From contig CAYLPT010000070.1 of the NCBI GenBank assembly GCA_964385645.1, positions 14,538 to 78,537 on the forward strand: a stretch of DNA of 64,000 nt. The letters are read 5' to 3'. The position numbers and the translations under genes are program-made. The notes under the pieces are model-generated. The model was not told the DNA's origin. It made no database searches and was given only the letters and a program-made list of their open reading frames with translations. Below, in pieces: positions 1 through 62,464 of this stretch. The stretch comes from an uncultured bacterium (GTDB lineage Bacteria > Armatimonadota > Hebobacteria > Hebobacterales > Hebobacteraceae). Position 1 is the stretch's first letter. The number at the start of each line of letters is the position of its first letter.

Positions 1-1
1 G

Positions 2-160
2 TTCCTGACCGTGTCCGCGCACACGCGGCTCGCCACCTTCGACCCCCGGCTGGCGATGGGTGCGCTGCTGATCGTGCTCGCCATCGGGCTCGCGGCCGGC
101 GTCTACCCCGCGCTGCGGGCCAGCCGCCAAGAGCCCATAGAGGCCCTGCGGACCGAGTGA
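2..160 (+). CDS. 3' end of an ABC transporter permease (FtsX/MacB/LolE-type); 5' part lies outside the window
   Basis: Open frame from the window edge translating to ...GALLIVLAIGLAAGVYPALRASRQEPIEALRTE*, a typical FtsX-family C-terminal TM4 segment; followed after about 10 nt by a second FtsX permease gene. Confidence 0.55.
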   Translation, partial: FLTVSAHTRLATFDPRLAMGALLIVLAIGLAAGVYPALRASRQEPIEALRTE

Positions 161-171
161 GGACGGCCGAC

Positions 172-1392
172 ATGGACTACCTGCGACTGGCGCTGAAGAA
201 CATCCTGCGCCGCCGGCTCCGCAGCCTGCTGTCGGTGCTCGGGGTGGCGGCCGCGGTGGCCGTGCTCTACTCCCTGCTGGAGTTCCAGCGCGGCTACGAG
301 CGGGGGCTGAACCAGGAGCTCGAGCAGCTCGGCGCGCACATCATGGTGGTGCCCAAGGGCTGCCCCTATGAGGCCGCCACCATCGTGCTGCACGGCGGCA
401 AGTGGCCCCGCTACATGGAGGAGGAGTACTTCGGCCGCATCGCCGCCACGCCGGGCGTCGGCGATGCCGCCCCCATACTCATGGACGCCATCATTGACCC
501 GCAGGGCAGGGACAGCCGGATCTTCCTGGGCATCACGGATGAGTACCCGGCCCTGCGTTCGCGCTGGGAGCTCGTGGCAGGGACCGGCTTCAGCGGCCCC
601 GCGGCGAGGGAGGTCATCCTGGGCTCGACGATGGCGGAGCGCCTGCGGCTGTCCCCAGGCGACACCTTCGCCCTCCGCCAAGATGCCGCGGGACGGGCTG
701 CGGGCAAGCAGGACGCGGACCTCCGGGTGGCCGGAGTCCTGGCGCGAACCGGAACCCAGGACGATGGGCTCATCTTCCTTCCCCTGGCGACGGTGCAGGA
801 GCTGTTCAACCTCCCGGGCCGCATCGTGGTGGTGCTGGTGCGGGCCGAGCGCCTCGACTCCGGCGCCATCGAGCAGCTCTCCGATGACCTGCGAGCGCTC
901 GGCGGCAACATGAACATCTTCCCGCTCACCGAGTTAGTCGAGAACGCCGCCCAGCTCGTGCAAGCGACGCGGGTGTTCGTGTGGGCTATCGCGGCGGTGG
1001 CGATCGCGGTGAGCGCCGCCGGCGTCCTCAACACCATCCTGATGGCCGTGTTTGAGAGAAGGAAGGAGATCGGCATGATGAAGGCGGTCGGGGCGGGCCG
1101 CAAGGACGTCTTCGCCCTCATCTGGGCGGAGACCGTCCTCATCTGCCTCGGCGGCGGCCTGCTGGGGGTCAGCGCGGCCCTGCTGGGCTCCCGCGCCACC
1201 GAGTGGTTCCTGCGGGCGGCGCTCTCCTCTCAGTTCGCGGCCCTGCCCCGGACCACGCTGATCGGCTTCTCCCCCCCGCTCGCCGCCCTTTGCCTGGTTC
1301 TGGCGACCCTGGTCGGCATGATCGCCGGCTCCTATCCCGCCTGGCGCGCCGGCGCGGTGCGGCCCATCGAGGCGATCAGGGGAGCGGATTGA
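172..1392 (+). CDS. ABC transporter permease, FtsX/MacB-like (N-terminal TM, large periplasmic domain, three C-terminal TMs)
   Basis: ORF 157..1392; ATG at 172 preceded by GAGGACGG RBS; MDYLRLALKNILRRRLRSLLSVLGVAAAV start and C-terminal motif ...FERRKEIGMMKAVGAGRKDVFALIWAE... typical of the FtsX/MacB/LolCE family. Confidence 0.85.
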   Translation: MDYLRLALKNILRRRLRSLLSVLGVAAAVAVLYSLLEFQRGYERGLNQELEQLGAHIMVVPKGCPYEAATIVLHGGKWPRYMEEEYFGRIAATPGVGDAAPILMDAIIDPQGRDSRIFLGITDEYPALRSRWELVAGTGFSGPAAREVILGSTMAERLRLSPGDTFALRQDAAGRAAGKQDADLRVAGVLARTGTQDDGLIFLPLATVQELFNLPGRIVVVLVRAERLDSGAIEQLSDDLRALGGNMNIFPLTELVENAAQLVQATRVFVWAIAAVAIAVSAAGVLNTILMAVFERRKEIGMMKAVGAGRKDVFALIWAETVLICLGGGLLGVSAALLGSRATEWFLRAALSSQFAALPRTTLIGFSPPLAALCLVLATLVGMIAGSYPAWRAGAVRPIEAIRGAD

Positions 1393-1396
1393 CACC

Positions 1397-2116
1397 ATGA
1401 GTGCACGACCGCAGCCTGCCCACACTCATGGGCCTCACTCCGACGGCCCCCTGGTGGAGGCGGTGGACCTCGTCAAGGTCTACCTGCGCGGCGATGAGCG
1501 GGTGCAGGCCCTCCGCGGCGTATCGCTGTCCCTTCCCCCGGGCGACTTCTGCTGCCTGCTCGGCCCCAGCGGCGCGGGCAAGACCACCCTGCTCAACCTC
1601 GTGGGCGCGCTCGACACCCCTACCAGCGGGCGGCTCCGGGTGGCCGGGCTCAGTCTCCACGGGGGCCCCAGCCTTCCCGCGGCGGCGCGCGACCGCCTGC
1701 GGCGAGAGCGTATCGGATTCGTGTTCACCGAGTTCTTCCTCGTGCCTACCCTGTCGGCGATCGAGAATGTGTTGCTGCCGCAGCTCTGGACGGGCCGGCA
1801 GGACCGCCGCTACGCCGAGGAGCTGCTGGGGCGCGTCGGCCTGGGTGGGCGCTTGTCCCACCGGCCCTCGGAGCTGTCGGGCGGGGAGATGCAGCGGGTG
1901 GCGATCGCCCGCGCGCTGGCGAACCGACCGGCCCTGCTGCTCGCCGACGAGCCCACCGGCAATGTGGACACCGCCACCCGCGACGGGATCATGGCGCTCT
2001 TCCGGGAGCTGAATGCCGAGGGGCTCACCATCCTGCTCGCCACCCACGACCAGGAGCTGGCCGATGGGGTGGACCGGGTGCTGCCGCTGTCGGAGGGGAG
2101 GATCGCCGATGCTTGA
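1397..2116 (+). CDS. ABC transporter ATP-binding protein (MacB/LolD-like)
   Basis: Walker A GPSGAGKTTLLN, signature LSGGEMQRVAIARAL, Walker B LLLADEPTGNVD; start 4 nt after the upstream permease stop. Confidence 0.9.
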   Translation: MSARPQPAHTHGPHSDGPLVEAVDLVKVYLRGDERVQALRGVSLSLPPGDFCCLLGPSGAGKTTLLNLVGALDTPTSGRLRVAGLSLHGGPSLPAAARDRLRRERIGFVFTEFFLVPTLSAIENVLLPQLWTGRQDRRYAEELLGRVGLGGRLSHRPSELSGGEMQRVAIARALANRPALLLADEPTGNVDTATRDGIMALFRELNAEGLTILLATHDQELADGVDRVLPLSEGRIADA

Positions 2117-2807
2117 GGGCAACACCGCGCCCCTCGTCGAGGCGCGCGACCTCTGGCGCACCTACCGCCGCGGGTCCGAGACCATCCACGCGCTGGCCGG
2201 CGTCAGCCTGAGTGTGCGGCCGGGCGAGATGGTCGGCGTCGTCGGCCGCTCGGGCTCGGGTAAGACCACGCTCCTCAACCAGATCGGGTGCCTCGATCGG
2301 CCGACGAGGGGGACCATCCACATCGCCGGCCGAGAGGTCACCGCGCTGGGCGAGCGCGACCTGGTCGCCTTCCGGCGGGACCACATCGGTTTCATCTTCC
2401 AGCTCTTCTACCTCATCCCGACGCTCACCGCCCTCGAGAACGTCGAGCTGCCCATGGTCTTCGCCCGCGACCGGGAGCGCAGGGCCCGGGCCGAGGAGGC
2501 GCTCTGCCGCGTCGGCATGACCGACTTCGGGGCCCTCCCCCGCCAACTCAACGGCGGGGACATGCAGCGCGTCGCCATCGCCCGCGCCCTCGTCCGGCGC
2601 CCCCGGCTGCTGCTCGCCGACGAGCCCACCGGCCGGCTCGAGGCCGCCGCGAAGGGGGCCATCATGGGCATCTTCCGCGACCTGACGGCCCAGGGCCTGG
2701 CGGTCGTGCTGGTCACGCACGACCCCACCCTCGCCGCCCAGTCCGACCGCGTGCTCGAGCTTCGCGACGGCCGCGCCGCATCCCTGGCCGAGGGGGCGCG
2801 CGCATGA
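2109..2807 (+). CDS. Second ABC transporter ATP-binding protein (paralog)
   Basis: ATG at 2109 overlaps the upstream stop (ATGCTTGA); Walker A GRSGSGKTTLLN, signature LNGGDMQRVAIARAL, Walker B LLLADEPTG. Confidence 0.9.
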   Translation: MLEGNTAPLVEARDLWRTYRRGSETIHALAGVSLSVRPGEMVGVVGRSGSGKTTLLNQIGCLDRPTRGTIHIAGREVTALGERDLVAFRRDHIGFIFQLFYLIPTLTALENVELPMVFARDRERRARAEEALCRVGMTDFGALPRQLNGGDMQRVAIARALVRRPRLLLADEPTGRLEAAAKGAIMGIFRDLTAQGLAVVLVTHDPTLAAQSDRVLELRDGRAASLAEGARA

Positions 2808-3889
2808 GCGCCGCTTGGCCCCTGTCCGCGGTGGTGGGGCTCTTACTCTGCGTCCGCACGGCCGCCACCGCCGCCCCCGAGGAGGCCCCGGCCGAGCGCC
2901 GCGGCCTCCGTGTGGCTCGCACCCAGGTGGATGGGCGCCTCGACCTCCAACTGATGCACATGGATGCCGAAGGGCTCGAGCCACACGTGATGGCCGCCGA
3001 GGCCGAGATACTCATCACCGTCGCCTCGGCCGAGCGGGACGTCCTGGACATCGCGCTCCAGTGGCCCTACTACACCGACATGCGGGGCGTGGACGGCCGG
3101 GGACGGGAGATGCACTTCGGCAACGCTTACCTCGTCTACCGCACCGGCTTCGGACGGCCCAATCTCCGGCTGGGGCAGTTCGTCGTGCCCTTCGGCAACC
3201 TGACCCACTATGAGACCCACACCTTCCCCCTCCAGAGCCTGTACCCCGAGAGCCTCGGGCTGCGCATTGACCGCGGCGCCAGTCTAGAGGGATACGCCGG
3301 CGAGTGGGACTGGTGGCTCGCGCTCACCGGAGGCAATGGCCCCCGCGCCGACAACGACCGCCAGCCGATCATGGTCGCCCGGGCGGCCCGCACCCACCAG
3401 ACGGCCGGCGGCGCTCTCACGCTCGGCCTCTCCGGTCTGCTGGGCCGGCAGATGCCCCGCTTCTCGCCCCTCGTGGACCCTCTGATGGACCATGATGGAG
3501 GCGAGCATGGGGGCCACGCGCCAGCGCTGGAGTTCGCCAATAAGCGCCGGCTGGCGCTCGACCTGGAGTATGTCGCGGGGCTCGACCTGTGGCGCGGCGA
3601 GGTCGTTCTCGGGGAAGACGGCGACGGACCCGCCCGCGGTGGGTTCGCGCAGTGGGGCAGGGCCCTCGGGGAGGGGCGGGAGGTCACGCTTCAGGCGGCC
3701 GGGTGGCAGCAGCCCTCAGGTCGCCGAATGCGGCTCGGCGCCGCGTACGGGCTGGAGCTCGACCCCACCACGACGCTGCGGCTCGCGGCCGAGCGCCGCG
3801 CCGGCCGCACTGACACGGGGAGCGCAAGGGACACCGTCGTGTGGCTCCAGGTGTTGCGGGAGCTGCCCGCGCTGGCTCCTGCGCGCTGA
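2804..3889 (+). CDS. Secreted β-barrel outer-membrane protein, porin-like (possibly phosphate-selective porin O/P-like)
   Basis: ATG at 2804 overlaps the upstream stop (ATGA); signal peptide MSAAWPLSAVVGLLLCVRTAATAAP; alternating amphipathic β-strand pattern and aromatic-rich segments (FGNAYLVYRTGFGRPNLRLGQFVVPFG). The longer track ORF 2288..3889 is an upstream-extension artefact. Confidence 0.55.
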   Translation: MSAAWPLSAVVGLLLCVRTAATAAPEEAPAERRGLRVARTQVDGRLDLQLMHMDAEGLEPHVMAAEAEILITVASAERDVLDIALQWPYYTDMRGVDGRGREMHFGNAYLVYRTGFGRPNLRLGQFVVPFGNLTHYETHTFPLQSLYPESLGLRIDRGASLEGYAGEWDWWLALTGGNGPRADNDRQPIMVARAARTHQTAGGALTLGLSGLLGRQMPRFSPLVDPLMDHDGGEHGGHAPALEFANKRRLALDLEYVAGLDLWRGEVVLGEDGDGPARGGFAQWGRALGEGREVTLQAAGWQQPSGRRMRLGAAYGLELDPTTTLRLAAERRAGRTDTGSARDTVVWLQVLRELPALAPAR

Positions 3890-3918
3890 CCGGCCGGCGG
3901 GCGCCCACCAGCGGCGGG

Positions 3919-3947
3919 TTGACGCCCGCGCCGCGACTGGCTATCAT
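3919..3947 (+). promoter_or_regulatory. Near-consensus σ70-type promoter TTGACG-N17-TATCAT
   Basis: ttgacg (3919-3924), 17-nt spacer, tatcat (3942-3947); about 65 nt upstream of a small ORF with a GGGAGG RBS; conspicuous in a 70% GC background. Confidence 0.4.
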
Positions 3948-4012
3948 GCCTACCGGGATCAGGGCCCCCGGCCGGCGGCCCCGACGGAGGCAGCTTCAGG
4001 GAGGCGGATGAA

Positions 4013-4261
4013 ATGTCGGCGACAGAGCGGAAGGTCGCCATCGTGCTGGCGGTCCTGCTGGCACTGGTGGTTGTGGCGTATGTGACGGCCGGAGGAGGCC
4101 TGCGCGCGGGGACGGCGGCCGGCGAGGTCTCTCCTGCGGGCCACGTGCACGGCCCCGGGTGCACGCACGACCACGCGGCCCCAGCAGCCAGCGAGCCGGG
4201 CTGCGAGGACGAGCACGGAAGCGATGTCCTCGCCCCCTACCTCCAGCCGGAGGGCCGCTAG
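4013..4261 (+). CDS. Small single-pass membrane protein with His/Cys-rich tail (possible metal-binding protein)
   Basis: RBS AGGGAGGCGG 8 nt upstream of ATG; one TM helix (VAIVLAVLLALVVVAYV) then HVHGPGCTHDH...GCEDEHGSD; consensus promoter upstream. Confidence 0.45.
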   Translation: MSATERKVAIVLAVLLALVVVAYVTAGGGLRAGTAAGEVSPAGHVHGPGCTHDHAAPAASEPGCEDEHGSDVLAPYLQPEGR

Positions 4262-4415
4262 CGCCGGCCGCGGCAGCCCGGCCCGGGAGCCTTCGCCCAC
4301 ACGCCCTCCTGCTTGGCCCCGGCGGCGATCGTGGCCGCTGACCACGGGGAGTTCCACGGTCCGATCCCCGGCATGTTGGACCTGCCCCGCGCTCTCCCCC
4401 TCGCGGTCATGCGGC

Positions 4416-5417
4416 TCAACTGGAGCTCGGCCTACGCGTTCCACCGGGGCTACCGCGAGGCGGCCGGCACCGTGGCGGGAGGGAGCACACCGCCAGCAAC
4501 AGGTCGCCGGTGAGCAGGGAGACCGGCAGGCGCTGGAGCGATGATTCGATGTGGAGGCCGAGGCGCCCCAGCCGCCGGAGGGGGAGCTGTCGGCCGATGC
4601 CCTTCAGCCTGTGGAGCCGGAAGTGCGCGCCCAGCAGGGCCCTGATCTCGGGGGCGGTGAAGTTGTAGTAGTAGATGGCGTCACCCCAGTGGTAGCCTTG
4701 TTTGGCGCAGTCGGGCCGGCGGAGAAGATGGCGGAGGCGCTTGCGCAGGGAGTGGTTGTAGGCGGACACGCAGCAGCGGCCGCCGGGCTTCAGCACCCGG
4801 GCCAGCTCGGCCACTGCCCGCCTCTGCTGCCCATCATGGGGCAGGTGCTGGAGCACCTGGGAGCTCAGGGCGCGGTCGAAGGCGCGCGCAAGGAAGGGCA
4901 TGTGGCACACGTCCGCCTGGGCCAGGTGAAGGTTCGCCCCCAGGTGCGCGCAGCGCTCGCGGGCGGCGAGCAGGGAGTGAAAGGAGAAGTCCACCGCCAC
5001 CACCTCTCGGCACCGGGGGGCGTAGTGCTCGACCATGCGGCCGGTGCCGCAGCCCGCGTCGAGCACCCGGTCGGCCGCCCCAGGCTCGAGCGCGGCGAGC
5101 GTGGCGGGGATCTCAAGCGCGTCCTGGTATCCGGAGTCGCCCCACACCCAGGCCCGGCGGTCGCGGGTGCGCATCTCGCTGAGCTTGTCGCGCGCCACCC
5201 GGTCCCGGCGCGGGTGCTCTCTGGGCACTGGGCTGATGCTCTTGGGCAGCAGGACGGGGATCCCGTCGCGGATGGGGAACGCCCGGCCGCAGGCCGCGCA
5301 GGCCAGCTCGCCCGTGCCGACCTCCCCGTCGCCGAGACCGCCCGCCTCGGCCCTCAGCTCCAGGGGGTGAGAGCCGTCGTCTGGACAGCACAGCAGCCCG
5401 AGCAGACTCAGGTGCAT
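4416..5417 (-). CDS. Trm112-like zinc-ribbon domain fused to a class I SAM-dependent methyltransferase
   Basis: N-terminal LLCCPDDGSHPLEL...LACAACGRAFPIRDGIPVLL (Trm112p-like motif) followed by SAM-binding motif I VLDAGCGTGRM and motif post-I VVAVDFS. Confidence 0.75.
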   Translation of the reverse strand: MHLSLLGLLCCPDDGSHPLELRAEAGGLGDGEVGTGELACAACGRAFPIRDGIPVLLPKSISPVPREHPRRDRVARDKLSEMRTRDRRAWVWGDSGYQDALEIPATLAALEPGAADRVLDAGCGTGRMVEHYAPRCREVVAVDFSFHSLLAARERCAHLGANLHLAQADVCHMPFLARAFDRALSSQVLQHLPHDGQQRRAVAELARVLKPGGRCCVSAYNHSLRKRLRHLLRRPDCAKQGYHWGDAIYYYNFTAPEIRALLGAHFRLHRLKGIGRQLPLRRLGRLGLHIESSLQRLPVSLLTGDLLLAVCSLPPRCRPPRGSPGGTRRPSSS

Positions 5418-5513
5418 GCTCGCTCCCGGCAGGGGGCTTCATCGGGCGAGCGCCATCGGGCCGCCCTCTGACGGTGCGCCGCGACCTCATGGTACCCGCC
5501 GGCCGCGGTGAGG

Positions 5514-6719
5514 TCAAGGCAAGCCTGGGCCGCTGCCGGCACACCCGGGTCCGCTGTCGCCTCCCCGTGGTGGCGCCCCCGAGCTGGCGCGGCGGCGCGC
5601 GACCACCGCCGCCAATCGGTAGGCGCGGCTGCGCCAAGAGGGCGCGTACCGGCGCAGGGTCACGATTTGGCGGCGGCGAGACGCCAGGCGGCGTTTGTGC
5701 TCGAAGTCCCCCGCTAGCAGGTCACACCGGCGGAAGCGCCGGGCCTCGATGCAGTGCTCAATGGCCATCACCGTCAACACCTCCCCCACGCTGTCCTGCG
5801 GCCGGGGGTTTCGGTACCCGTGGTACCACAGGTAGCACACCTCGCCCTGCAACAGGGCGACGTCCAGGCCGGCCGGCTCACCGTCAAGCGTGAGGCGGAG
5901 CAGGCGAACGGCTCCGGTCGGGTAGAGGGAGTGTAGGAACCGGCCCACAAACTCCACGTGCGCCGGGTCGTCGAAGAGGGTCGGCTCGCCCCTCCCCCGC
6001 CACCGCTCGCGGACCATCTCGACGAGCGCCTGCCAGTCGCGCTCCAGCTCCTCCTGGGCCCCGCACACAGACAGCTCGGCCCGATAGCGGCGGGACAGCC
6101 GGCCGCGGTCCCGCCGCAGGTGCTTGCGCGTGCTTCGCCTCATGCCGGCCAGGTATTCCTCGAAGCTCGCCGGCAGCTCGACGAACAGGCCCCAGTCCTG
6201 AGGAACGACCTCGAAGGGCCGGCCCCGCCGCTCCGCCTCCTGGCGCACTATGCCCAGGGCCTGGCTGTCCTCCCGGACCCCGCGCAGGACAATCCGGTCC
6301 CAGCCGCGCTCCGCCTCCAGGTGGTCGAGAAGGGCGGCGGCGCAAGCCTCGGCCCGGCCGCGGTGGAAGATGACATCAGCATACGGGGCCACCATCCCGC
6401 CCGTATCCGCGAAGCGCAGCTCCCTCAGACCACCCTCCCACCATCTCTTGCGGTGCCACATCAAGGGCACGATGCCGACCAGCCCTCCCCGGTCGCGCAG
6501 CACGAGGGTGTGCATCGCGCTCCCGGCGCCGAACACCTCCCACCAGTGGTAGTGCCATTCCCAGGTCTGGAACGGGGTGGGGGAGAGGGACTCCGGCAGC
6601 AGCGCCTGCCACTCCTCCCTCAGCGCGGCCAGCCCCTCCAGGTCGGCCACCACGTTGGGGGACATGCCCCCCGCGTCCACCGGCTGGGCCCCTCCCGGCG
6701 CGGGGGCCCGCGACTGCAT
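5514..6719 (-). CDS. CelD/FemAB-like GNAT-fold acyltransferase (BioF2-like / Acetyltransf_6 family)
   Basis: TPFQTWEWHYHWWEVFG and downstream conservation resemble CelD/FemABX-type acyltransferases; ATG at 6719..6717 overlaps the upstream stop (TGATG), implying translational coupling. The track ORF extends to 6800. Confidence 0.6.
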   Translation of the reverse strand: MQSRAPAPGGAQPVDAGGMSPNVVADLEGLAALREEWQALLPESLSPTPFQTWEWHYHWWEVFGAGSAMHTLVLRDRGGLVGIVPLMWHRKRWWEGGLRELRFADTGGMVAPYADVIFHRGRAEACAAALLDHLEAERGWDRIVLRGVREDSQALGIVRQEAERRGRPFEVVPQDWGLFVELPASFEEYLAGMRRSTRKHLRRDRGRLSRRYRAELSVCGAQEELERDWQALVEMVRERWRGRGEPTLFDDPAHVEFVGRFLHSLYPTGAVRLLRLTLDGEPAGLDVALLQGEVCYLWYHGYRNPRPQDSVGEVLTVMAIEHCIEARRFRRCDLLAGDFEHKRRLASRRRQIVTLRRYAPSWRSRAYRLAAVVARRRASSGAPPRGGDSGPGCAGSGPGLP

Positions 6720-7750
6720 CACGATCCTCCCCCGGCGCGCTCGGCCGGCGTGCGGCGGCCGCCACAGCGGACGAACGCCCGGCAGGCAGCGTCCTGCCAT
6801 TCGGGCTTGACGCCGATGGAGGGCATGTCCTGGTAGAAGCCCGCGATGAACCCGCCATCGAACGCCCCCAGCTTCTCAACCAGCTCCCGCGCGAAGGCCT
6901 CGATCCTGGCTATGTCTCCCGTCGGCAGCACTTGCTGCACGTCCACCGGACACCAGAACGCAACCTTGCCCCCAAACGCCTCCGCCAGGCGGTCCACGCC
7001 GAACAGACCTGGCTGGTCGAGCTGCAGCACCGAGACACCGCACTCGATCAAGTCGGGGATGATGTCCCGGATGTAGCCGCAGGAGTGCATCCACACCGTC
7101 AGGCCGCACCGTCTCGCCACCTCGCAAAGACTCGCGTAGTCGGGCTTGAACACCTCCCGCCACATTCTGGGGCTGACCAGCAAGCGGTCCTGAGTCCCCC
7201 AGTCCTCCCAGATCAGCACCGCGTCCGCGCCCACCCGCGCCCAGTTCTCGACACACCGCGCCAGCAACGGCACCACCCGCTCCCGCAGCCGCTTTACCTC
7301 TCCGGGGTTGGCGGCCAGATCCTGCAGGAACACGTCCATACGCCGCAGGTAGCGCATCACGTCGAACGGGAAGTGCCCCAGGCCGCCCAGCCGATACCGC
7401 TCCGGCTCCCGCGCGAATGCCTGCCGGGCCTCCTCATATCGCGCCGGGTCGTCAATGCTGGGCATCACGTAGTCGTCGAGGTCGGACCAGTCCCTCAGCG
7501 CGCCCTCGACCACCTGGCCCTTCGAGAACTCATCCACCCGAGCCCACACATTGCCCCACTCGTCCTCCCACTTCGCCCCCCGCTCGACCTCAAACGTCCT
7601 CCTGGGTCGCCACCCCGGATCGGGCGCCAGATGCCCCCAGACGAAGTCGTTGGGGTAGGGCGGCGGCAGCGACATGGCGACGCGCTCCGGCCCCTCGAAG
7701 CGGATCGTCCGGAGCACGATCTCCCGTGGCGTCATCTCCCCTCCTGGCAT
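6719..7750 (-). CDS. Uroporphyrinogen decarboxylase (URO-D)/MtaA-family protein
   Basis: 343 aa; URO-D/methylcobamide:CoM methyltransferase-like TIM-barrel features including a WMHSCGYIRDIIPDLIECGVSVLQLDQP segment (HxCG motif); first gene of a three-gene minus-strand operon. Confidence 0.6.
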   Translation of the reverse strand: MPGGEMTPREIVLRTIRFEGPERVAMSLPPPYPNDFVWGHLAPDPGWRPRRTFEVERGAKWEDEWGNVWARVDEFSKGQVVEGALRDWSDLDDYVMPSIDDPARYEEARQAFAREPERYRLGGLGHFPFDVMRYLRRMDVFLQDLAANPGEVKRLRERVVPLLARCVENWARVGADAVLIWEDWGTQDRLLVSPRMWREVFKPDYASLCEVARRCGLTVWMHSCGYIRDIIPDLIECGVSVLQLDQPGLFGVDRLAEAFGGKVAFWCPVDVQQVLPTGDIARIEAFARELVEKLGAFDGGFIAGFYQDMPSIGVKPEWQDAACRAFVRCGGRRTPAERAGGGS

Positions 7751-7922
7751 CAGCGAAGCCCTTCACAGATGAATTCGACCGCCGCACAGGGCATGTCCTG
7801 CCTGGCGCAGGGCATGCGGGAGGGCAACCGGACCGGGGCATCCCGGTGACAGCCCTGGGACACGGGGCCGGTGTTCACACAATCTTCGGAGGGTAGCCGG
7901 CTGGCCGAAACAATGTGCGAGT

Positions 7923-7935
7923 TACATATATTGTA
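7923..7935. promoter_or_regulatory. 13-bp palindrome TACATATATTGTA in the only AT-rich island of the window; candidate operator overlapping the -10 region of the TonB-dependent receptor gene
   Basis: tacatatattgta is a perfect inverted repeat (TACA-N5-TGTA) about 30 nt upstream of the receptor start; the direct repeat gcagggcatg occurs twice at about 7787-7824. Confidence 0.35.
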
Positions 7936-7964
7936 GGAGACAGAACCCTGTGAGGAGGAGAGGG

Positions 7965-10001
7965 ATGGCAGAACTGGCAGAGGGGATCCGAGGCGTGGCG
8001 CGCGTGGCTCTGGCGCTCGTCGTCTGTGCCGCTCTGGGGCTGGGGGCTGGCGTTGCTTCGGCGGCAGAGGGGCAAGGGGAGACGGAGCTAGAGGTGGAGG
8101 CGCTGGCCCCCGCGGACGAGGGCGAGGTGCCTGAGATCGAGGTAGAGGTGGTGGGGAAGCGGGAAGGTCTGCTCTCCATCTCGCCGGCCCCGGGCGAGCA
8201 GGTCGTGGAGGTGACGGCGGCCGATATCGCGGACCTGGGCGCGCAGACCGTGCTGGAGGCGATCGAGCTGACGCCCTCGGTGTTCGTGCGCCACCAGGGG
8301 GCGCGCTACGAGAATCGGATCTCCATCCGGGGCATGACCCCGCGGCTGGTATTGCTAGACGGCCTGCCCGTGGCGCGGGAGGGGACCTCCGGACCCGGCG
8401 GCGGGGCGGGGGGCGCGGAGGCGGCGTTCGCCGGCCGCATCCTGTACACCATGCCGGCGGAGGTGATCGAGCGCATTGACGTCATCCGCACCGGCAACAC
8501 CATCGTGTACGGCCCCACCGCGGCCGCCGGATCGGTGATCAACATCGTCACCAGAGAACCGGCGCCGGGCGCCCGTGTTTCGGCGGCCCTGCACAAGGGC
8601 AGCTTCAGCCAGCAACGGGCCCTGGTGGACGCGGGTGTCAATGATCCGCCGCTGTCCTTCCTGGTGCTGGCCGGATCTGACTACGCCGGCTCTCACCTGC
8701 CCCTGGGCGAGAAGCGCTTCAAGGACATCTTCGGCAAGCTGGTCTACGACTACCCGGATGGTTCCCGGCTGCTGGTGGACGTCTACACCCTGGAGGGCAG
8801 GCGGCGGCTCGACCTGAGCCAGGACTTCAGCATCGTGCCGGCCCGCTACTGGGAGATCGCCCCGTGGAAGGAGCGCTTCGCCAACCTGGTCTGGAGCCAG
8901 GCGCTGAGTGAGGAGGAGACCCTCGATGTGGTCTTCTACCTGCGCAACAGGGATTTCAGCACCAACCAGTACACCGACGCCACCTTCGGCGTGGTAAGCC
9001 AGGACTGGCGGGAGGCCGAGGACGACCACGGCGTGGACCTGCGCTGGAGCGCCCGGCGCCAGGATGGCACTCTGACACGGACGGGCCTGCAGTGGTCGCA
9101 GCTCGACTCCTACACTCTTCAGCGGTGGCTGCGCGGGGCGCGGGCCGGTGAGAGAACGGAGGTCTCAGAGAAGCTCACCACCTGGAGCCTGTTCGCCAAC
9201 CACGTGGTCCCGGTGCGGGCCGACCTGAGGGCGAGCGTGGGCGCACGCTACGACAAGCTCCGGGGGCACTCGCCCGACCTGAGCCTCCAAGCTGGCGCGG
9301 AGGTTACCGTGTCGCCCCAGAGCACCTGGTACGCCAACCTGGGCACCGGGGTGGAGCGCCCGCGGCCGACGGCGAGGGACCTGGAGGAGGGGGAGATCCC
9401 CGTCGAGGCGCCCTCGCTGAGCGCGGAGACGGGCTGGACGGTGCGCCCGGACGAGCTCTCTCGGATCAACGCCGCCCTCTTCTGGGTACGGACGCGCGAC
9501 GCGCGAGTGCTCTACAACGACCCGCCCGGGTCCATCGGTCCCACCGCCTGGCGGAGCAAGGCGGAGGACCTGACGACCGCCGGGCTGGAGCTGGTCTACG
9601 ACCGCCGGCTTAGCGACCAGGTGACCGCGTTCGCGAACTACACCCACCTCGTCGAGCGCGTGTCGAACAAGAACTCCCCGCAGATCCCCGGCCCGCTGTA
9701 CCCCTACCTCCCGAAGCCGCCGCGCCACATCGTGGGCGCGGGCCTGCGGGCGGCCGTCGGCCAGGCGCGGGTGGCCCTCAACGCCAAGTATGCCAGCAGC
9801 TACTTCGCGCAGAGCCGGCTGATGAGCACTGCGGCGCCTGTGGACGCCTACCTGGTCTTCGACCTGCGGGTGACCCACCCCGTGGGCGCGGGGGAGCTGG
9901 CGGTGTCTGTGGACAACCTGCTGGATGCTGACTACGAGACGATGCCGGCCTTCCCGCGGCCGGGACGGAACTACCTGGCGAGCTATCGCTGGAGCTTCTA
10001 G
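7965..10001 (+). CDS. TonB-dependent outer-membrane receptor
   Basis: Signal peptide MAELAEGIRGVARVALALVVCAALGLGAGVASAAEG; plug-domain motifs (ISIRGMTPRLVLLDGLPV, IERIDVIRTGNTIVYGPTAAAGSVINIVT); long β-barrel ending in ...LASYRWSF (terminal aromatic). Confidence 0.85.
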   Translation: MAELAEGIRGVARVALALVVCAALGLGAGVASAAEGQGETELEVEALAPADEGEVPEIEVEVVGKREGLLSISPAPGEQVVEVTAADIADLGAQTVLEAIELTPSVFVRHQGARYENRISIRGMTPRLVLLDGLPVAREGTSGPGGGAGGAEAAFAGRILYTMPAEVIERIDVIRTGNTIVYGPTAAAGSVINIVTREPAPGARVSAALHKGSFSQQRALVDAGVNDPPLSFLVLAGSDYAGSHLPLGEKRFKDIFGKLVYDYPDGSRLLVDVYTLEGRRRLDLSQDFSIVPARYWEIAPWKERFANLVWSQALSEEETLDVVFYLRNRDFSTNQYTDATFGVVSQDWREAEDDHGVDLRWSARRQDGTLTRTGLQWSQLDSYTLQRWLRGARAGERTEVSEKLTTWSLFANHVVPVRADLRASVGARYDKLRGHSPDLSLQAGAEVTVSPQSTWYANLGTGVERPRPTARDLEEGEIPVEAPSLSAETGWTVRPDELSRINAALFWVRTRDARVLYNDPPGSIGPTAWRSKAEDLTTAGLELVYDRRLSDQVTAFANYTHLVERVSNKNSPQIPGPLYPYLPKPPRHIVGAGLRAAVGQARVALNAKYASSYFAQSRLMSTAAPVDAYLVFDLRVTHPVGAGELAVSVDNLLDADYETMPAFPRPGRNYLASYRWSF

Positions 10002-10075
10002 GCTCGCGCCAGCTTGCGGGAAGCGAGCGCCGGCCGGCCCCCCCCGGGACGGCGCGGGGGCGGGCGGGAAGGAGT

Positions 10076-10684
10076 ATGGGAAACGTGATAGAGCTCATCA
10101 GACAGGGCGGGATCTTGATGTACCCGCTGGGGCTGTGCTCGGTGCTCACGGTGGCGATCTTCCTGGAGCGGCTGTGGCGCTTCCTGCTGGCCGATCGCGA
10201 CCCGGCGCTGGTGATCGCGGAGGCCAGGCGGGCCCTCGCCGAAGGCGGCAACCCGCGCCCGAGGTGGGAGGATAGGCCTGCGCCCGCGGTTCGGGCGGCC
10301 GGCGCGGCGCTGAGCAGGGCCGGGGAGCGGAGGTCGGTGGTCGAGGACCACGTGCGCTCGACGCTCTCGAGAGAGGCTTTGCGGCTGGGCGCCAACCTGG
10401 GGATAGTGGGCACCATCGGAAACATCGCCCCCTTCATCGGGCTGCTGGGTACGGTGACCGGCATCATCCGGGCCTTCCGCGCCATCAGCGTGGTGGGCAC
10501 TGCGGGGCCGGCGGTGGTGTCGGCCGGCATCTCCGAGGCCCTGGTCACCACCGCGGCCGGGCTGTCGGTGGGCATCGTCGCGGTGGTCGCCTACAACCTC
10601 TTCGTCGTCTGGCAGGCGCGGCTCATGCGCCGGGCGGAGATCGTCGCCACGGAGGTGCTCAGCCTGGTGGCGCCGGAGGCGTGA
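10076..10684 (+). CDS. exbB: MotA/TolQ/ExbB proton-channel protein
   Basis: MYPLGLCSVLTVAIFLERLWRF and GANLGIVGTIGNIAPFIGLLGTVTGIIRAF, hallmark ExbB/TolQ TM2-TM3 motifs; sits upstream of two exbD genes and tonB. Confidence 0.88.
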   Translation: MGNVIELIRQGGILMYPLGLCSVLTVAIFLERLWRFLLADRDPALVIAEARRALAEGGNPRPRWEDRPAPAVRAAGAALSRAGERRSVVEDHVRSTLSREALRLGANLGIVGTIGNIAPFIGLLGTVTGIIRAFRAISVVGTAGPAVVSAGISEALVTTAAGLSVGIVAVVAYNLFVVWQARLMRRAEIVATEVLSLVAPEA

Positions 10685-10685
10685 G

Positions 10686-11132
10686 ATGGCCTTCGAGCAG
10701 GACGACAGCCACATCATAGGCGAGATCAACATCACGCCTCTGACCGACGTGATGCTCGTGCTGCTCATCATGTTCCTGCTCACGGCGACCTTCATACTCT
10801 CCTCGCGCGGGCTCCAGGTGGACCTGCCCGCCCCGGTGGTCGAGCATGAACCTCCGCCCGAGCCTGACCCCGCGGCGCGCATCGTCGTGCAGGTGGACCG
10901 GCAGGGGAGAGTGCACATCGGCGGGCGCCCACTGGCCGACGGCGAGCTGACTGGCGCGCTGATGGAGGAGGCCGCCCGGCGCCGCGATCGGGAGAAGATC
11001 GTGGTCGTGCGCGCCCACGCCGACGCTCCCTACGGGCGGGTAATATGGATAATGGACAGCGCCCGCCTGGTCGGGCTGCCCCGGGTGTCGCTGGCGACGC
11101 AGGAGCCTGAACCGGGGGCCGGCTCGCAGTAG
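10686..11132 (+). CDS. exbD: ExbD/TolR biopolymer transport protein (copy 1)
   Basis: INITPLTDVMLVLLIMFLLTATF N-terminal TM typical of ExbD/TolR; starts 2 nt after the exbB stop. Confidence 0.85.
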   Translation: MAFEQDDSHIIGEINITPLTDVMLVLLIMFLLTATFILSSRGLQVDLPAPVVEHEPPPEPDPAARIVVQVDRQGRVHIGGRPLADGELTGALMEEAARRRDREKIVVVRAHADAPYGRVIWIMDSARLVGLPRVSLATQEPEPGAGSQ

Positions 11133-11153
11133 CCGCCGAGCGAGGAGCCAACA

Positions 11154-11576
11154 GTGGCTGTCGGGTATCACAACGGAGGGATGATCGGGCAGATGAACAT
11201 CACCCCGCTCACGGGCGTGATGCTCATCCTGCTGATCGTGCTCATGGCCACCGCGACCATCCTCGTGCCTGAACCCTCGCCGCCGGTGGACCTGCCCGCC
11301 GCGGCCAGCAGCGAGATCATCGCCGGCGAGAGAGGCGAGATCGTGGTCGCCGTGGATCGCGACGGCGCGCTCTTCGTTGATGAGCAGCCGGTGGGAGCCG
11401 AGGAGTTCACCCGTGCGCTGCTCGACGCCTCCCGTAGGCTGGCGGCCGATCGCAAGGTGGTGCTCGTCCGCGCCGATCTCGAGGCCCCCTACGGGCGCAT
11501 CATCTGGATCATGGACAGCGCGCGGCTGGCCGGGCTTCGCCACATCGCGCTCGCCACCCGTCGCCCCGACGAGTAG
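11154..11576 (+). CDS. exbD: ExbD/TolR biopolymer transport protein (copy 2)
   Basis: MNITPLTGVMLILLIVLMATATIL; GAGGAG RBS 7 nt before a GTG start; paralogous to copy 1 (shared YGRIIWIMDSARLAGL / YGRVIWIMDSARLVGL). Confidence 0.8.
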   Translation: MAVGYHNGGMIGQMNITPLTGVMLILLIVLMATATILVPEPSPPVDLPAAASSEIIAGERGEIVVAVDRDGALFVDEQPVGAEEFTRALLDASRRLAADRKVVLVRADLEAPYGRIIWIMDSARLAGLRHIALATRRPDE

Positions 11577-11598
11577 GCACGGCCCCGACTGGAGGAGC

Positions 11599-12525
11599 AT
11601 GATGGCAACCGCCGACCTCATCCCAGAGCTCGTCCCCCGCGTCAGGTTCAACGGCCTGCTGGCGGCGGCGCTGCTCGTGTCCGCGGCCGGCCACGGGCTT
11701 GGGGTCTACGCGGCGGGGCGCTGGGGCGGCTGCGAGTGCTTCGCCCCGTATGTAGTCTGCCCCAGGGACTGCCCGGATGTGGCCGAGCGAAGCATCGAGA
11801 TCGCGCTGTCCGAGCCGCCCCCGCCGCCGGCGCCGCGGGAGCCTCAGCCCGAGCCCGAGCCCTCCGTGGCGGTCGAGCGCCCCCGGCCCGAGCGGGCCCC
11901 GGCGGCGCCTGCGGCCGGGCGCGTCGTCCTCCCGGATGAGGCCTTCCAGCGGGAGACCCGGCCGCCCGCTGACATCACCCTCGACCGGCCCGCGTTGCCC
12001 GAGGAAGTGGTCGTTCGGGAGTCGGAGGCGGAGGCCCCCGTCATCGCCACCGGCGAGATCTTCGGGCGGGCCCGCGATCTGACGGCGGGCGAGCCGGGCG
12101 TCTTCGGGCTCGGAGGCGCCGGCACTGCCACCGGCCTGGGTCCTTTTGGCGCCGACAGAGAAGGCCGGGGCGCGGCTCAGCCGGCCCCGCCCGCCCCTGT
12201 GTCCAGGCCCGAGCCCAGGCCACAGCCAGAGCCTCAGCCCCGAGGGCCCACTCGCAACCCGCAGGTAGTCAACTGGAGGGAGCCCGCCTACCCTGAGCAG
12301 GCTCGCCAGCAAGGGATCGAGGGAACTGTCATCCTGAGGCTGACGGTGGCCGCGGATGGGACGCCCCGCGACATCGAGGTCGCGCGCTCCTCCGGGCACT
12401 CGGCCCTCGACTCCGCCGCCGTGACCCACCTGCAGCGCACCCGCTTCCTGCCGGCGCTCAGGGACGGAGAGCCGGTGGACATGGCCATCACCTTTCGGGT
12501 GAGGTTCCGCCTGGTGACGGCCTGA
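11599..12525 (+). CDS. tonB: TonB-family energy transducer
   Basis: [10 protein letters not shown] then ATGATG; N-terminal TM; Pro/Glu/Ala-rich linker; C-terminal TonB domain (NWREPAYPEQARQQGIEGTVILRLTVAADGTPRDIEVARSSGHSALDSAAVTHLQRTRFLPA). The track ORF from 11377 is an upstream extension. Confidence 0.8.
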   Translation: MMATADLIPELVPRVRFNGLLAAALLVSAAGHGLGVYAAGRWGGCECFAPYVVCPRDCPDVAERSIEIALSEPPPPPAPREPQPEPEPSVAVERPRPERAPAAPAAGRVVLPDEAFQRETRPPADITLDRPALPEEVVVRESEAEAPVIATGEIFGRARDLTAGEPGVFGLGGAGTATGLGPFGADREGRGAAQPAPPAPVSRPEPRPQPEPQPRGPTRNPQVVNWREPAYPEQARQQGIEGTVILRLTVAADGTPRDIEVARSSGHSALDSAAVTHLQRTRFLPALRDGEPVDMAITFRVRFRLVTA

Positions 12526-12575
12526 GCGCGGCGGGGCAGCGAACCACATCCAGGGCAGGGAAGGAGATCCGCACG

Positions 12576-13973
12576 ATGGGCAACAGGGGTGCGCTTTCGG
12601 CCATCCTCACCGCGCTCGCGCTTGCCTGGGCGGTCTGCGGGGCGGCACAGGAGGGGCCTCGTTCGGTCCCGGTCCAGATCGCCCTGGCCGAGGCGATGGC
12701 CGAGAACGAGGACTGGGAGGAGGCGGCGCGGCGTTGGATCGGGATCATCTACTACTTCGGCCCCTCCGAGCAGGAGGCCCGCGCTGAGTTCGAGCTGGGC
12801 GCTGTGGCGCTGCCAAGGGGCCGCTCCGACCTCGCCGTCAGCCAGTGGCAGGAGGTCGTCGCCCGCCACCCCGACACCGAGTGGGCCGCCCGCGCCAGGG
12901 AGGCGCTGGCCCTCCTGGGGAAGGAGCCCCCGGAGCCCGAGGAGGCGCCCGAGCCCTACATCACCGAGGAGACTCCCGGCGACGAGCGGCAGTTCTTGAT
13001 GTCCGAGGCGGGCATGGCTCAGGGCCTGTACGCCTTCGCGCTGCGGGACTACCTCAAGGTGCCTAACCTCCATCCTGACAGCCCCCGCGCTGCCGAGGCG
13101 CGCTTCCGCGTCGGCACTTGCCAGGTGCTGCTGGGCCGGCCGGAGCTGGCCGTACGCCAGTGGCAGCGGCTGCTCGAGGAGCACCCCGACGCGCCCGAGG
13201 CGCGCCTCGCCAGAGGAGGCATCGCCGCCTGGCAGGCCCTGCTAGAGGTCGCCGGCGTGCAGGTCGGCCGCCAGCCTGGTCTGGATGGCGGCTGGACGCC
13301 CTTCCGCGCCCATGGTACGGAGCCGGACCGCGGCCTGAGCTATGCGGAGGACCTCTACGAGAACGGCATCTACGACTACGCGCTCCAGGAGTACGCCAAG
13401 GTCCTCTGCGGCATCTACACCCCGCCGGGCGAGGACAACCCGCACCTGGCCTACGCCCGCTATCGCATGGGGGTGTGCGCCTACCGGCTGCGCGATCCGG
13501 ATGGGGCCGCGCGGCAGTGGCGGCGCGTGATGGAGGACCACCCCGACAGCCCCTGGGCGCAGCAGGCCAGCCGCGCCCTGGCGGCCGTCGGCGGCAGCGA
13601 CACCCTCTCCTCAGAGGCCGGAAGGCCGGCGCTGGCTTTGCCGGAGGGGCTGGATACCCCCTTGGCCATGCGCCAACATCTGGCGCACCAGCTTGCCGAC
13701 GCCGGGCTGCCGCGGCTGGCGATCAAGGAGTACCTCAAGGTGATCAACGTGCTGACGGCCGGCCGGCCGAACCCGTATCAGGCGGAGGCGTGGTACCGGA
13801 TCGGGCAGTGCCAGCAGGCGCTGGGGCGGCCCGACCTGGCGGCGGCCGCCTGGGAGGCGGCGGTGCGGGAGCACGCGGGGACCGAGTGGGCGGAGAGGGC
13901 GGAGGCCGCGCTGGCCGCCGCGGGCCGACGGGAGGGCGTTTTCGCGCGGGGCCGGGGGGGGCCAGGAACCTGA
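12576..13973 (+). CDS. Tetratricopeptide (TPR) repeat protein with signal peptide (YbgF/TolB-associated type)
   Basis: Signal peptide MGNRGALSAILTALALAWAVCGAAQE; repeated W-x-A-x-Y-R-x-G-x-C / A-x-A-x-x-Q-W 34-residue-like repeats; follows tonB as in Bacteroidota/Gemmatimonadota-type Ton clusters. Confidence 0.7.
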   Translation: MGNRGALSAILTALALAWAVCGAAQEGPRSVPVQIALAEAMAENEDWEEAARRWIGIIYYFGPSEQEARAEFELGAVALPRGRSDLAVSQWQEVVARHPDTEWAARAREALALLGKEPPEPEEAPEPYITEETPGDERQFLMSEAGMAQGLYAFALRDYLKVPNLHPDSPRAAEARFRVGTCQVLLGRPELAVRQWQRLLEEHPDAPEARLARGGIAAWQALLEVAGVQVGRQPGLDGGWTPFRAHGTEPDRGLSYAEDLYENGIYDYALQEYAKVLCGIYTPPGEDNPHLAYARYRMGVCAYRLRDPDGAARQWRRVMEDHPDSPWAQQASRALAAVGGSDTLSSEAGRPALALPEGLDTPLAMRQHLAHQLADAGLPRLAIKEYLKVINVLTAGRPNPYQAEAWYRIGQCQQALGRPDLAAAAWEAAVREHAGTEWAERAEAALAAAGRREGVFARGRGGPGT

Positions 13974-13995
13974 GGGCTTGCGGGCCCCTCACTCT
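13969..13995. terminator. Imperfect GC hairpin between convergent genes (TPR gene and trkA); possible bidirectional terminator
   Basis: tgagggc-ttgcgg-gcccctca stem-loop in the 15-nt gap between the two stop codons. Confidence 0.3.
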
Positions 13996-14633
13996 CCGAA
14001 TTGGCTGAGGCCAGGCTCGCGGCCGAAGACGATCAGGACATCGCCCTCGCGGATCACGCTCTCGCCGGAGGGCAGCGCCTCGTAGTGGTCGCCTGATTTG
14101 ATGAGCAGCACCTGGATGCCGTAGCGGCGGGGGAGCTGGAGGTCGCGCAGGGAGCGCTGCCACCACTCCGGGGGGGCGGTGACCTCCTCGATGCTGTAGT
14201 CGCCCTCGATGTTCATGTAGTCGAGCGTGCGCGCGGTGCGACCGATCATGTGGGCCAGGCGCTTGCCCATGTGGCGCTCGGGCAGGACGATCTGGTCGGC
14301 GCCGATGCGCTCGAGGATCTTGGCCTGCTGGTCGGTGAGGGCCTTCGAGATCACGTAGCGGGCGTTGAGCTCGCGCAGGTTGAGGGTGATGAGGACGCTC
14401 TCCTCCAGGTTGGAGCCGCGCCCCACGATGCAGATGTCGAAGGAGGGGATGTCGAGGGTGTGGAGCGCCTCGATGCTGGTCGCGTCCATCTCGATGGCGC
14501 GGGCGAGGTGGGGGGCGTTGCGCTGAACGACCTCCATGTCGGTGTCCACGCCCAGCACGTCGTGGCCGAGGCGCGCGAGCTCAAGCGCCAGGCTCTCGCC
14601 GAAGTACCCCAGGCCAATGACCAGGATGTTCAT
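13989..14633 (-). CDS. trkA: K+ uptake regulatory subunit TrkA/KtrA (TrkA-N Rossmann domain + TrkA-C domain)
   Basis: MNILVIGLGYFGESLALELARLGHDVLGVD (GxGxxG NAD-binding) and a C-terminal TrkA-C-like domain; adjacent to a TrkH gene. Confidence 0.88.
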   Translation of the reverse strand: MNILVIGLGYFGESLALELARLGHDVLGVDTDMEVVQRNAPHLARAIEMDATSIEALHTLDIPSFDICIVGRGSNLEESVLITLNLRELNARYVISKALTDQQAKILERIGADQIVLPERHMGKRLAHMIGRTARTLDYMNIEGDYSIEEVTAPPEWWQRSLRDLQLPRRYGIQVLLIKSGDHYEALPSGESVIREGDVLIVFGREPGLSQFGE

Positions 14634-14651
14634 GTCACCTCTCCCCCTGTC

Positions 14652-16094
14652 TCAGCCGGCCATCACGCCCTCCTCCGGCAGGCGCCGGAGGGCGGCGGCC
14701 CTGGGCCGGGCGAAGGTGAAGGCGAAGGCCAGCGGCCCTAGCCGGCCGAGGAACATCGAGAATATGATGAGCGCGCGCGACAGTGGTGTCAAGGTGGGGG
14801 TGATGCCGCCGCTGAGCCCGACCGTGCCGAAGGCGGAGATCACCTCGAACAGGAGGTAGTTGTAGCGCAGAGCGGTCTCCGGGGTGAGGGGGAGGCGGGG
14901 CAAGGTGACCTCGATCAGCCCCACCGCCAGGCCGATGAGGAGGACCGCCAGCAGGTAGACCGCGGTGAGGGAGAGGGCGAGCCGCGACATGTCGCCGCTG
15001 ACACGCCGGCCGAAGGCCTCGATATCGCTGCGCCTGCGCAGCAAAGCGAGGACGGCGAGGAAGATGATGGCAAGGGTGGTGATCTTGATGCCCCCGGCGG
15101 TGCTGCCGGGGGCGCCCCCGAAGATCATGAGCAGCGACAGCAGCAGGAGGGTAGGTGGCGCCACCTGGCTGAGGTCCACAGGGGAGAACCCCGCGGTCCG
15201 CGGCGTGACGCTCATGAACCAGGCGTTGGCGAGCTGTGTCCGCAGGTCTGGGAGGGCCCCGAGGGTGGCCGGGTTCTCGAGCTCGAAGAGCAGGAAGAGG
15301 CCCATGCCGCCGGCGAGGAGCACCGCGGTGACGCAGAGGACCAGCTTGGCGTGCAGGGTCAGCCTGCGCACCCGGGGGAGCACGAACAGCTCCGCAAGCA
15401 CGCCGAAGCCCAGCCCGCCGAGGATGATGAGGCCGCTGGTGGCGAGCAGCAGGAAGAGGTCGGTGCGGTACTCGGGCCGGGAGAAGCCCTCGAAGCCTGG
15501 GACGAGGTCGAAGCCGGCGTTGCAGAAGGCGGAGACGGAGTTAAAGATGCCGTGGAAGACGGCCTCGCCCCTGGGCAGATGGTGCTGGATGTGGAAGCGC
15601 CGCGCGAGGGCGACCGCTCCCATCCCCTCGATGAGGAAGGTGGCGATGGCGGCATAGCGGGCCATGCTGACGGCCGACCTGAGGCTCAGCGCGCCGTGCG
15701 ACTCCTGTAGCTGGAGGCGGGCCCGCAGCCCCACCCGCAAGCCCAGCATGGTGGCGATGATGGTCGCCAGGGTCATGTAGCCCAGCCCGCCCACCTGTAT
15801 GAGCACGAGGATGACGACCTGGCCGAAGCGGGTCCAGGCGTCGGCCGTGCTGACGGTGACCAGGCCGGTTACGCAGGCGGCCGAGGTGGCGGTGAAGAGG
15901 CAGTCCAGCAGGCCGACCCTCTCGCCAGGTTGCTGGGAGATGGGCAGCGACAGCAGCGCGGTGCCCACCCCGATCAGCACCAGGAAGCTCAGCGCCACCG
16001 CCTGGATGGGGGAGAGCCGCCGCAGGAGCGCCCGGGCCAGCGAGACAGGCCGGAGCGGGCCGGACATGGATGAAGTGATCGGGACGCTGCGCAC
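14652..16094 (-). CDS. trkH: TrkH/KtrB-family K+ transporter membrane subunit
   Basis: 480-aa polytopic protein with repeated selectivity-filter-like Gly motifs (GLGYMT, GFDLV, GTVGLSGG); adjacent to trkA. Confidence 0.88.
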   Translation of the reverse strand: MRSVPITSSMSGPLRPVSLARALLRRLSPIQAVALSFLVLIGVGTALLSLPISQQPGERVGLLDCLFTATSAACVTGLVTVSTADAWTRFGQVVILVLIQVGGLGYMTLATIIATMLGLRVGLRARLQLQESHGALSLRSAVSMARYAAIATFLIEGMGAVALARRFHIQHHLPRGEAVFHGIFNSVSAFCNAGFDLVPGFEGFSRPEYRTDLFLLLATSGLIILGGLGFGVLAELFVLPRVRRLTLHAKLVLCVTAVLLAGGMGLFLLFELENPATLGALPDLRTQLANAWFMSVTPRTAGFSPVDLSQVAPPTLLLLSLLMIFGGAPGSTAGGIKITTLAIIFLAVLALLRRRSDIEAFGRRVSGDMSRLALSLTAVYLLAVLLIGLAVGLIEVTLPRLPLTPETALRYNYLLFEVISAFGTVGLSGGITPTLTPLSRALIIFSMFLGRLGPLAFAFTFARPRAAALRRLPEEGVMAG

Positions 16095-19702: not shown

Positions 19703-19715
19703 GGAGGCGGGTTGG

Positions 19716-59011: not shown

Positions 59012-59016
59012 GAGCC

Positions 59017-60363: not shown

Positions 60364-60367
60364 GGCG

Positions 60368-61042: not shown

Positions 61043-61043
61043 G

Positions 61044-62411: not shown

Positions 62412-62464
62412 GGTCTCTTGCCTCCTCATCCTCGTCTCCCAGCGCCGCGGGGCACGGCCCTCGG

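Follow-up and report, generated by a model that had tools for sequence, protein, structure and literature searches.

A single-species trio of URO-D-like, tandem-GNAT and Trm112-fused methyltransferase genes in an Armatimonadota genome, with a possible role in cell-envelope tailoring

Bacterial and archaeal proteins in which a Trm112 zinc knuckle is fused to a methyltransferase are already known from the literature (PMC5372719, PMC6144793); the Trm112 signature of such fusions reads [C/D]PX[C/D]X19-36CX2C (PMC5372719). Within the UroD superfamily, MtaA-like proteins have been defined by an identity of more than 25% (PMC10418091). In this study, we analyzed a 64,000-nucleotide stretch of DNA (hereafter the window) from an Armatimonadota genome, where three co-directional open reading frames (ORFs) on the minus strand at 4416-7750 encode a UroD-superfamily (URO-D) homologue, a tandem-GNAT transferase and a Trm112-fused methyltransferase. 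Judged from the genomes compared, this trio is a local gene arrangement of a single species and not a conserved new pathway. We tentatively favour the view that it represents a species-specific set of accessory tailoring enzymes, whose likeliest target would be a cell-envelope polymer, namely either the stem peptide of peptidoglycan or a glycan of the cell surface.

All three ORFs are genuine genes, and the domain calls of a first-pass annotation, which had listed URO-D, CelD/FemAB-like and Trm112-methyltransferase domains on the minus strand, hold (Table 1). Pfam searches returned PF01208 (URO-D) with 52 bits against a cut-off of 23.9, PF13480 (Acetyltransf_6) with 98.7 bits against a cut-off of 22, and PF03966 (Trm112p) with 37 bits against a cut-off of 22, the latter joined to Methyltransf_25/11 at about 80 bits. 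GC content at third codon positions (GC3) is 0.88–0.90 in all three genes, the same as in the flanking genes of this approximately 70% GC genome, and this strong bias is a mark of real genes. The same contig is present in three public assemblies. Among species-representative genomes, the nearest URO-D homologues (72–76% identity) come from Candidatus Hebobacterum and Hebobacteria, an Armatimonadota class described from marine sediments (PMC10290634), and the source genome is an Armatimonadota related to Candidatus Hebobacteria. A mobile-element or foreign origin of the trio was ruled out, as there are no flanking repeats and no anomaly in GC or GC3.

Two pairings from within the trio recur in other lineages. 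The best homologue of the transferase (P0252, 46% identity) lies in a co-directional cluster with a Trm112-methyltransferase, which matches the window enzyme over its full length (36% identity, E 6e-56; locus L109), and further transferase relatives are found in exopolysaccharide (EPS) clusters. When a transferase-family profile was run against the surroundings of the URO-D homologues, it matched in three Anaerolineae loci only, where the gene order is two FemAB genes, a gene for a 433-532-aa protein of no known role, the URO-D-like gene and a gene for a putative cyclase (PF04199). In L022 and L034, the cluster continues with a gene for a class B penicillin-binding protein (PBP) that carries a MecA_N domain, while L031 was examined less far; the URO-D-like enzyme is thus placed inside an Anaerolineae peptidoglycan cross-bridge locus. 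A separate URO-D clade adjoins MurJ and a gene for a PGM/PMM-type phosphohexomutase. Because transferase relatives sit in EPS and glycan clusters and URO-D, FemAB and PBP genes are linked in Anaerolineae, the envelope is the best-supported direction for the trio. One further candidate was not counted as a pairing: the gene downstream of another Trm112-methyltransferase (P0139) showed only a sub-threshold FemAB match and no BLASTP similarity to the window transferase.

Two side observations concern the composition of these clusters. The L109/L110 region (1-11146) encodes five Acetyltransf_6 proteins including P0252, the Trm112-methyltransferase, an ATP-grasp-like protein, a combined Polysacc_deac_1 and PMT_2 protein and a GT4, and has the appearance of an uncharacterised and elaborate system for tailoring glycans or peptides. 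The Anaerolineae clusters of L022 and L034 also contain a gene for an InhA-like protease.

Several results weigh against the envelope reading and have to be set beside these pairings. In a sample of about 85 URO-D loci, five contexts of transferase homologues and three contexts of methyltransferase homologues, the full trio was found at none of the loci, including those of every URO-D relative at 72–80% identity. The synteny in related genomes on which the first-pass annotation had itself staked its proposal is therefore missing, and no comparative evidence ties the three genes into one pathway. A tblastn search of 80 URO-D loci from GTDB species representatives detected no homologue of the transferase, and its matches for the methyltransferase were weak and generic throughout; clustering of the neighbouring ORFs at these 80 loci gave no conserved partner. 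The neighbourhoods are heterogeneous, with GFO_IDH_MocA as the commonest neighbour (14/80 loci), besides sulfatases and SBP_bac_5. No glycan or peptidoglycan gene lies directly beside the trio in the window. In the phylogenetic tree, the Anaerolineae URO-D sequences form one clade together with that of L064, so that the three loci amount to one independent event. Each of the two pairings comes from about one independent lineage. For this reason, we favour the envelope reading with reserve and keep coincidence as a serious rival. Of the uncharacterised small-molecule or envelope pathway that had been proposed at first, the envelope direction is thus borne out best by the clusters of the relatives, whereas the idea of a conserved three-gene pathway had to be given up.

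Coincidental adjacency would mean that a rearrangement in this species put the URO-D gene beside unrelated transferase and methyltransferase genes, the three products having neither substrate nor pathway in common. We regard this as unlikely, albeit by no means negligible. It would account for the different setting of the URO-D gene in the closest relatives: the five nearest homologues that were looked up (72–80% identity) have a common context, in which the gene comes after one or two CbiA/ParA-like ATPase genes, usually with two FAD oxidases before and an ECF sigma factor after, and sometimes a 301-aa gene in between. This context is absent from the window. It would also fit the uneven distribution of the three families, as the transferase and the methyltransferase lack close relatives, unlike the URO-D homologue. 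The latter has more than 1000 homologues with identities from 80% down to 50%, which come from Armatimonadota, Planctomycetota and Anaerolineae, among other groups. When 1.84 billion representatives were searched in a full HMMER scan, 11,097 relatives of the transferase were obtained, the best non-self match reaching 46% and the remainder at most 36%; in a word-indexed search, identities were at most 30% for transferase and at most 41% for methyltransferase homologues. The recurrence of both pairings in other lineages (transferase with Trm112-methyltransferase, URO-D with FemAB) speaks against coincidence, as does the organization of the trio on one strand with no terminator predicted between the genes by a sequence scan.

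Within the clade of Hebobacteria, the loci L004, L006, L088 and L090 (72–79% identity) show the URO-D gene after genes for CbiA/ParA (CooC-like) P-loop ATPases, two of which are present in L004, L006 and L090 and one is visible in L088; an ECF sigma factor follows in most. The paired ATPases could be metal-insertion chaperones for the His-x-Cys enzyme.

The junctions between the genes bear on the same question. As the first-pass annotation had stated, the URO-D stop and the transferase start share TGATG (6721-6717), with the TGA at 6721-6719, the ATG at 6719-6717 and a GGAGGA Shine-Dalgarno sequence 5 nt upstream; the junction reads ...GGAGGATCGTGATGCAG.... Such a strong Shine-Dalgarno sequence at the overlapping ATG counts against a chance arrangement. 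However, start calls for the transferase differ, with 401 aa from 6719 against a 383-aa database entry beginning at M19 (6665), and it is uncertain which of the two is used. The first 18 residues are Pro/Gly/Ala-rich, of low complexity, unaligned with homologues and modelled with low confidence, and in favour of coincidence the overlapping start could be a chance extension of the ORF into this unconserved, disordered tail. Translational coupling of URO-D and transferase, as claimed earlier, is thus no more than plausible: overlap and GGAGGA agree with it, whereas the start of the transferase is uncertain. Both proteins would probably be co-translated from one mRNA. The tight linkage ascribed to all three genes applies to this first junction but not to the second, where the methyltransferase follows after a 96-bp gap with a sigma-70-like site. 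A promoter scan of 3800-8100 found two sites, compared to 0.1 expected from shuffled sequences. The methyltransferase may therefore be under its own promoter, and this separate promoter-like site again counts on the side of coincidence.

The URO-D homologue belongs to a large, widespread and uncharacterised family, which includes members from Planctomycetota and Chloroflexota. Its start at 7735 is more likely than the alternative at 7750, because the AGGAGG spacing (4 nt upstream of the ATG at 7735), the 338-aa entry P0001 and the homologue alignment, both of which begin there, agree. In an alignment of 49 sequences, H217-x-C219 (MHSCG), E177-D178 (EDWGTQ), D139, Q238, D265 and Y301 are invariant, and D240 nearly so. 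In the predicted structure (pLDDT 93), E177/D178, H217/C219, Q238, D240, D265 and Y301 lie at or just past the ends of successive barrel strands. Taken together, the protein is a divergent member of the UroD superfamily and probably depends on a metal.

That the gene is nevertheless a housekeeping hemE or an MtaA-type corrinoid:thiol methyltransferase is very improbable and largely excluded. The case for it consists of the Pfam URO-D match and of a likeness to MtaA: this is the best structural match in Foldseek (4ay7, TM 0.62, 16% identity), followed by HemE (TM about 0.6, 14–20% identity), and a profile search against PDB sequences matched MtaA solely, HemE being absent, with MHSCG aligned to the LHICG zinc motif of MtaA. 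In a check of the zinc site on the sequence alignment (His-x-Cys plus a distal Cys), H217-x-C219 was invariant, but a third cysteine was not, since C262 is present in 36/49 and C318 in 41/49 sequences. The identities to both enzymes are low, that to MtaA falling short of the 25–30% asked of an MtaA/MtbA-type member, no hemE family model matched at E<=0.01, the NCBIfam MtaA models gave 28–42 bits against cut-offs of 235–400, and no corrinoid (B12-binding) protein was found among the approximately 50 window genes scanned. For these reasons, authentic hemE, which had been doubted from the start, was ruled out, as was an MtaA-type corrinoid methyltransferase, and the URO-D homologue is neither HemE nor MtaA-like as defined in PMC10418091.

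For the transferase, the predicted structure (pLDDT 87) is a tandem GNAT, and Foldseek placed FemX (1xf8 and 1ne9; TM 0.57/0.66) at the top, followed by the C-terminal domain of MprF and by aminoacyl-tRNA-dependent peptide synthases. Besides PF13480, only a sub-threshold Acetyltransf_3 match was obtained, and PF02388 (FemAB) did not match. A PDB sequence search with the transferase returned no match, and a plasmid search gave three distant ones. No cellulose or exopolysaccharide biosynthesis genes were found within 10 kb of it in the window.

The zinc-knuckle residues of the methyltransferase, C11-P-D-D14 ... C40-A-A-C43, agree with the published Trm112 signature. The fusion had been presented as unusual, which does not hold, because this architecture is the one described in PMC5372719 and PMC6144793; additional fusions of this type were met among the loci of our analysis. 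In a PDB sequence search, the protein matched generic small-molecule methyltransferases and archaeal Trm112 (6zxw_H, 6f5z_C). Its nearest solved relatives being small-molecule and lipid methyltransferases, a role in translation is unlikely.

If the three enzymes do act on the envelope, acyl-CoA or aminoacyl-tRNA would serve the tandem-GNAT protein as donor of the acyl or aminoacyl group that it transfers, and methylation would fall to the Trm112-fused class I enzyme, with S-adenosylmethionine (SAM) as the methyl source. A metal-dependent reaction would be the part of the UroD-superfamily TIM barrel, whose invariant His-x-Cys sits where a barrel strand has its C-terminal end. A bolder version, which we consider improbable, is that the URO-D-like family at large consists of cell-wall-associated metalloenzymes partnering FemAB-like aminoacyl transferases, and that the species of the window assembled an undescribed three-step envelope modification comprising aminoacylation, methylation and a UroD-type step. 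Should the envelope reading be true, it would give a first clue to what a large URO-D-like family of no known role does, and it would hint at unusual cell-wall chemistry in both Armatimonadota and Chloroflexota. As found, the trio brings generic enzyme families together in one species only, with nothing conserved that binds it into a pathway; of the leads obtained, the unexplained URO-D-like family with its occasional cell-wall neighbours is the most useful.

Table 1. Positions of the trio, its junction and promoter-like sites, neighbouring genes and comparison loci (window coordinates unless a locus is named)
Feature	Position	Strand	Basis or context
Trm112-like zinc knuckle (CPDD...CAAC) + class I SAM methyltransferase (LDAGCGTG motif I), 333 aa	4416..5417	-	PF03966, Methyltransf_25/11
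Tandem-GNAT (FemX/CelD-like) acyl-/aminoacyl-transferase, 401 aa (383 aa from 6665)	5514..6719	-	PF13480; predicted fold
UroD-superfamily TIM-barrel protein, 338 aa	6719..7735 (alternative start 7750)	-	PF01208; predicted structure
GGAGGA Shine-Dalgarno + TGATG stop/start overlap, URO-D/transferase	6717..6730	-	Direct sequence reading
Sigma-70-like site TTGACC-17-TACCAT, 96-bp gap before methyltransferase	5489..5517	-	Promoter scan
Promoter-like site TTGACG-17-TATCAT, 10/12	3919..3947	+	Before His/Cys-rich gene
His/Cys-rich small gene, 82 aa	4013..4261	+	Downstream of methyltransferase, convergent
TonB-dependent receptor	7965..10001	+	Divergent, upstream of URO-D
Anaerolineae FemAB/URO-D loci	L022 1803-11892; L034 1856-11840; L031 2010-7174		

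The trio is flanked by a MacB-type ABC transporter (two FtsX/MacB permeases and two ATPases), a 361-aa protein without Pfam match, and a module of TonB-dependent receptor, ExbBD and TonB, in which the genes after the receptor encode ExbB, two ExbD, TonB and a TPR protein. A small His/Cys-rich gene behind a promoter-like site had been placed divergently upstream of the trio; both gene and site exist, but they lie downstream and convergent, and the divergent gene is the receptor. The small gene is preceded by a GGGAGG Shine-Dalgarno sequence and comes after the MacB-type transporter and the 361-aa gene. Its 82-aa product, in which a His/Cys-rich tail (HVHGPGCTHDH...PGCEDEHG) follows an N-terminal transmembrane helix, is possibly a metal-binding protein of the periplasm; none of the loci retrieved contained a homologue.

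These flanks raise the alternative that the substrate tailored by the trio is a small molecule or peptide, for example a metallophore or modified peptide served by the MacB-type exporter, the His/Cys-rich membrane-anchored protein and the receptor with its ExbB, two ExbD and TonB partners. ZnuABC, encoded 8 kb further on, would suit such a role, as would the weak matches of the methyltransferase to natural-product and RiPP (ribosomally synthesized and post-translationally modified peptide) methyltransferases and the fact that certain FemX-like enzymes make peptide natural products. However, relatives keep the receptor/ExbB/ExbD/TonB/TPR module at 57–62% identity without trio, small protein or 361-aa gene upstream. 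An AT-rich motif of the shared intergenic region is conserved before the receptor in those relatives and thus belongs to the receptor. In addition, no core biosynthetic enzyme (non-ribosomal peptide synthetase, polyketide synthase or RiPP maturase) is encoded nearby. All in all, we deem this alternative quite improbable, and a functional link between trio and receptor module was ruled out, given that the module persists in relatives from which the trio is absent.

Upstream of the receptor, at 7880-7945 on the plus strand and likewise in L095, L096, L097 and L100, we noted the element TTCACA(A/C)A, followed about 45 nt on by GT(G)TAG.GTACATATAGAGAG, of which the window version is ACAATGTGCGAGTTACATATATTGTAGGAGAC; these conserved elements resemble a common promoter or operator. 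The receptor module also forms part of a metal-acquisition neighbourhood (7965-13973 and 18003-20543) with TrkA/TrkH, a 424-aa gene and ZnuA/ZnuC/ZnuB; uptake of zinc or a different metal is a possible function of the receptor. No known RNA or riboswitch was detected (Rfam E-value scan of 1-16000 and gathering-threshold scan of the whole window), no tRNA genes were found in the region, and the two gaps showed neither terminators nor unusual RNA structure (z-scores −0.6 and 0.1).

Elsewhere, the window encodes GH94, GH16, apiosidase-like and heparinase-like enzymes, glycosyltransferases, ZnuABC, a second TonB-dependent receptor and a type II secretion cluster, which fits a Gram-negative-type, polysaccharide-degrading organism. 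The second receptor ORF (44427-45950, minus strand, 507 aa) comprises a Plug domain and a partial barrel and may be truncated, frameshifted or mis-delimited. The type II secretion/pseudopilin cluster (54213-63982, minus strand) includes secretin, T2SS K, J-like and F proteins and several ORFs without Pfam match.

Compared to the described systems, each of the three proteins shares the general architecture of its family and departs from it in particulars. With MtaA and UroD, the URO-D homologue has in common the (beta/alpha)8 barrel (TM 0.6) and conserved acidic residues on the C-terminal face of the barrel, and its His-x-Cys aligns with the zinc-ligand position of MtaA. It differs by its identity of about 16%, which is under the >25% of PMC10418091, by scores under every curated subfamily cut-off, by an additional beta-rich N-terminal segment (residues 20-77) and, with regard to MtaA, by the unconserved third zinc cysteine and the lack of a corrinoid partner gene nearby in the window. 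The transferase resembles FemX/FemAB and CelD/BcsL-type PF13480 proteins in its predicted tandem-GNAT fold and in a PF13480 score far over the cut-off, and the CelD/BcsL type also in that its relatives occur in EPS and glycan clusters. Unlike FemABX, it is without a PF02388 match, has only 10–15% identity to the solved structures and could use either acyl-CoA or aminoacyl-tRNA as donor; unlike the CelD/BcsL type, it has no adjacent cellulose or EPS genes in the window. Finally, the methyltransferase shares with the known Trm112 fusions the N-terminal [C/D]PX[C/D]...CX2C knuckle joined to a class I SAM methyltransferase, whereas its catalytic domain is unrelated to Trm9, Trm11, Mtq2 and Bud23 and comes closest, among solved structures, to small-molecule and lipid methyltransferases.

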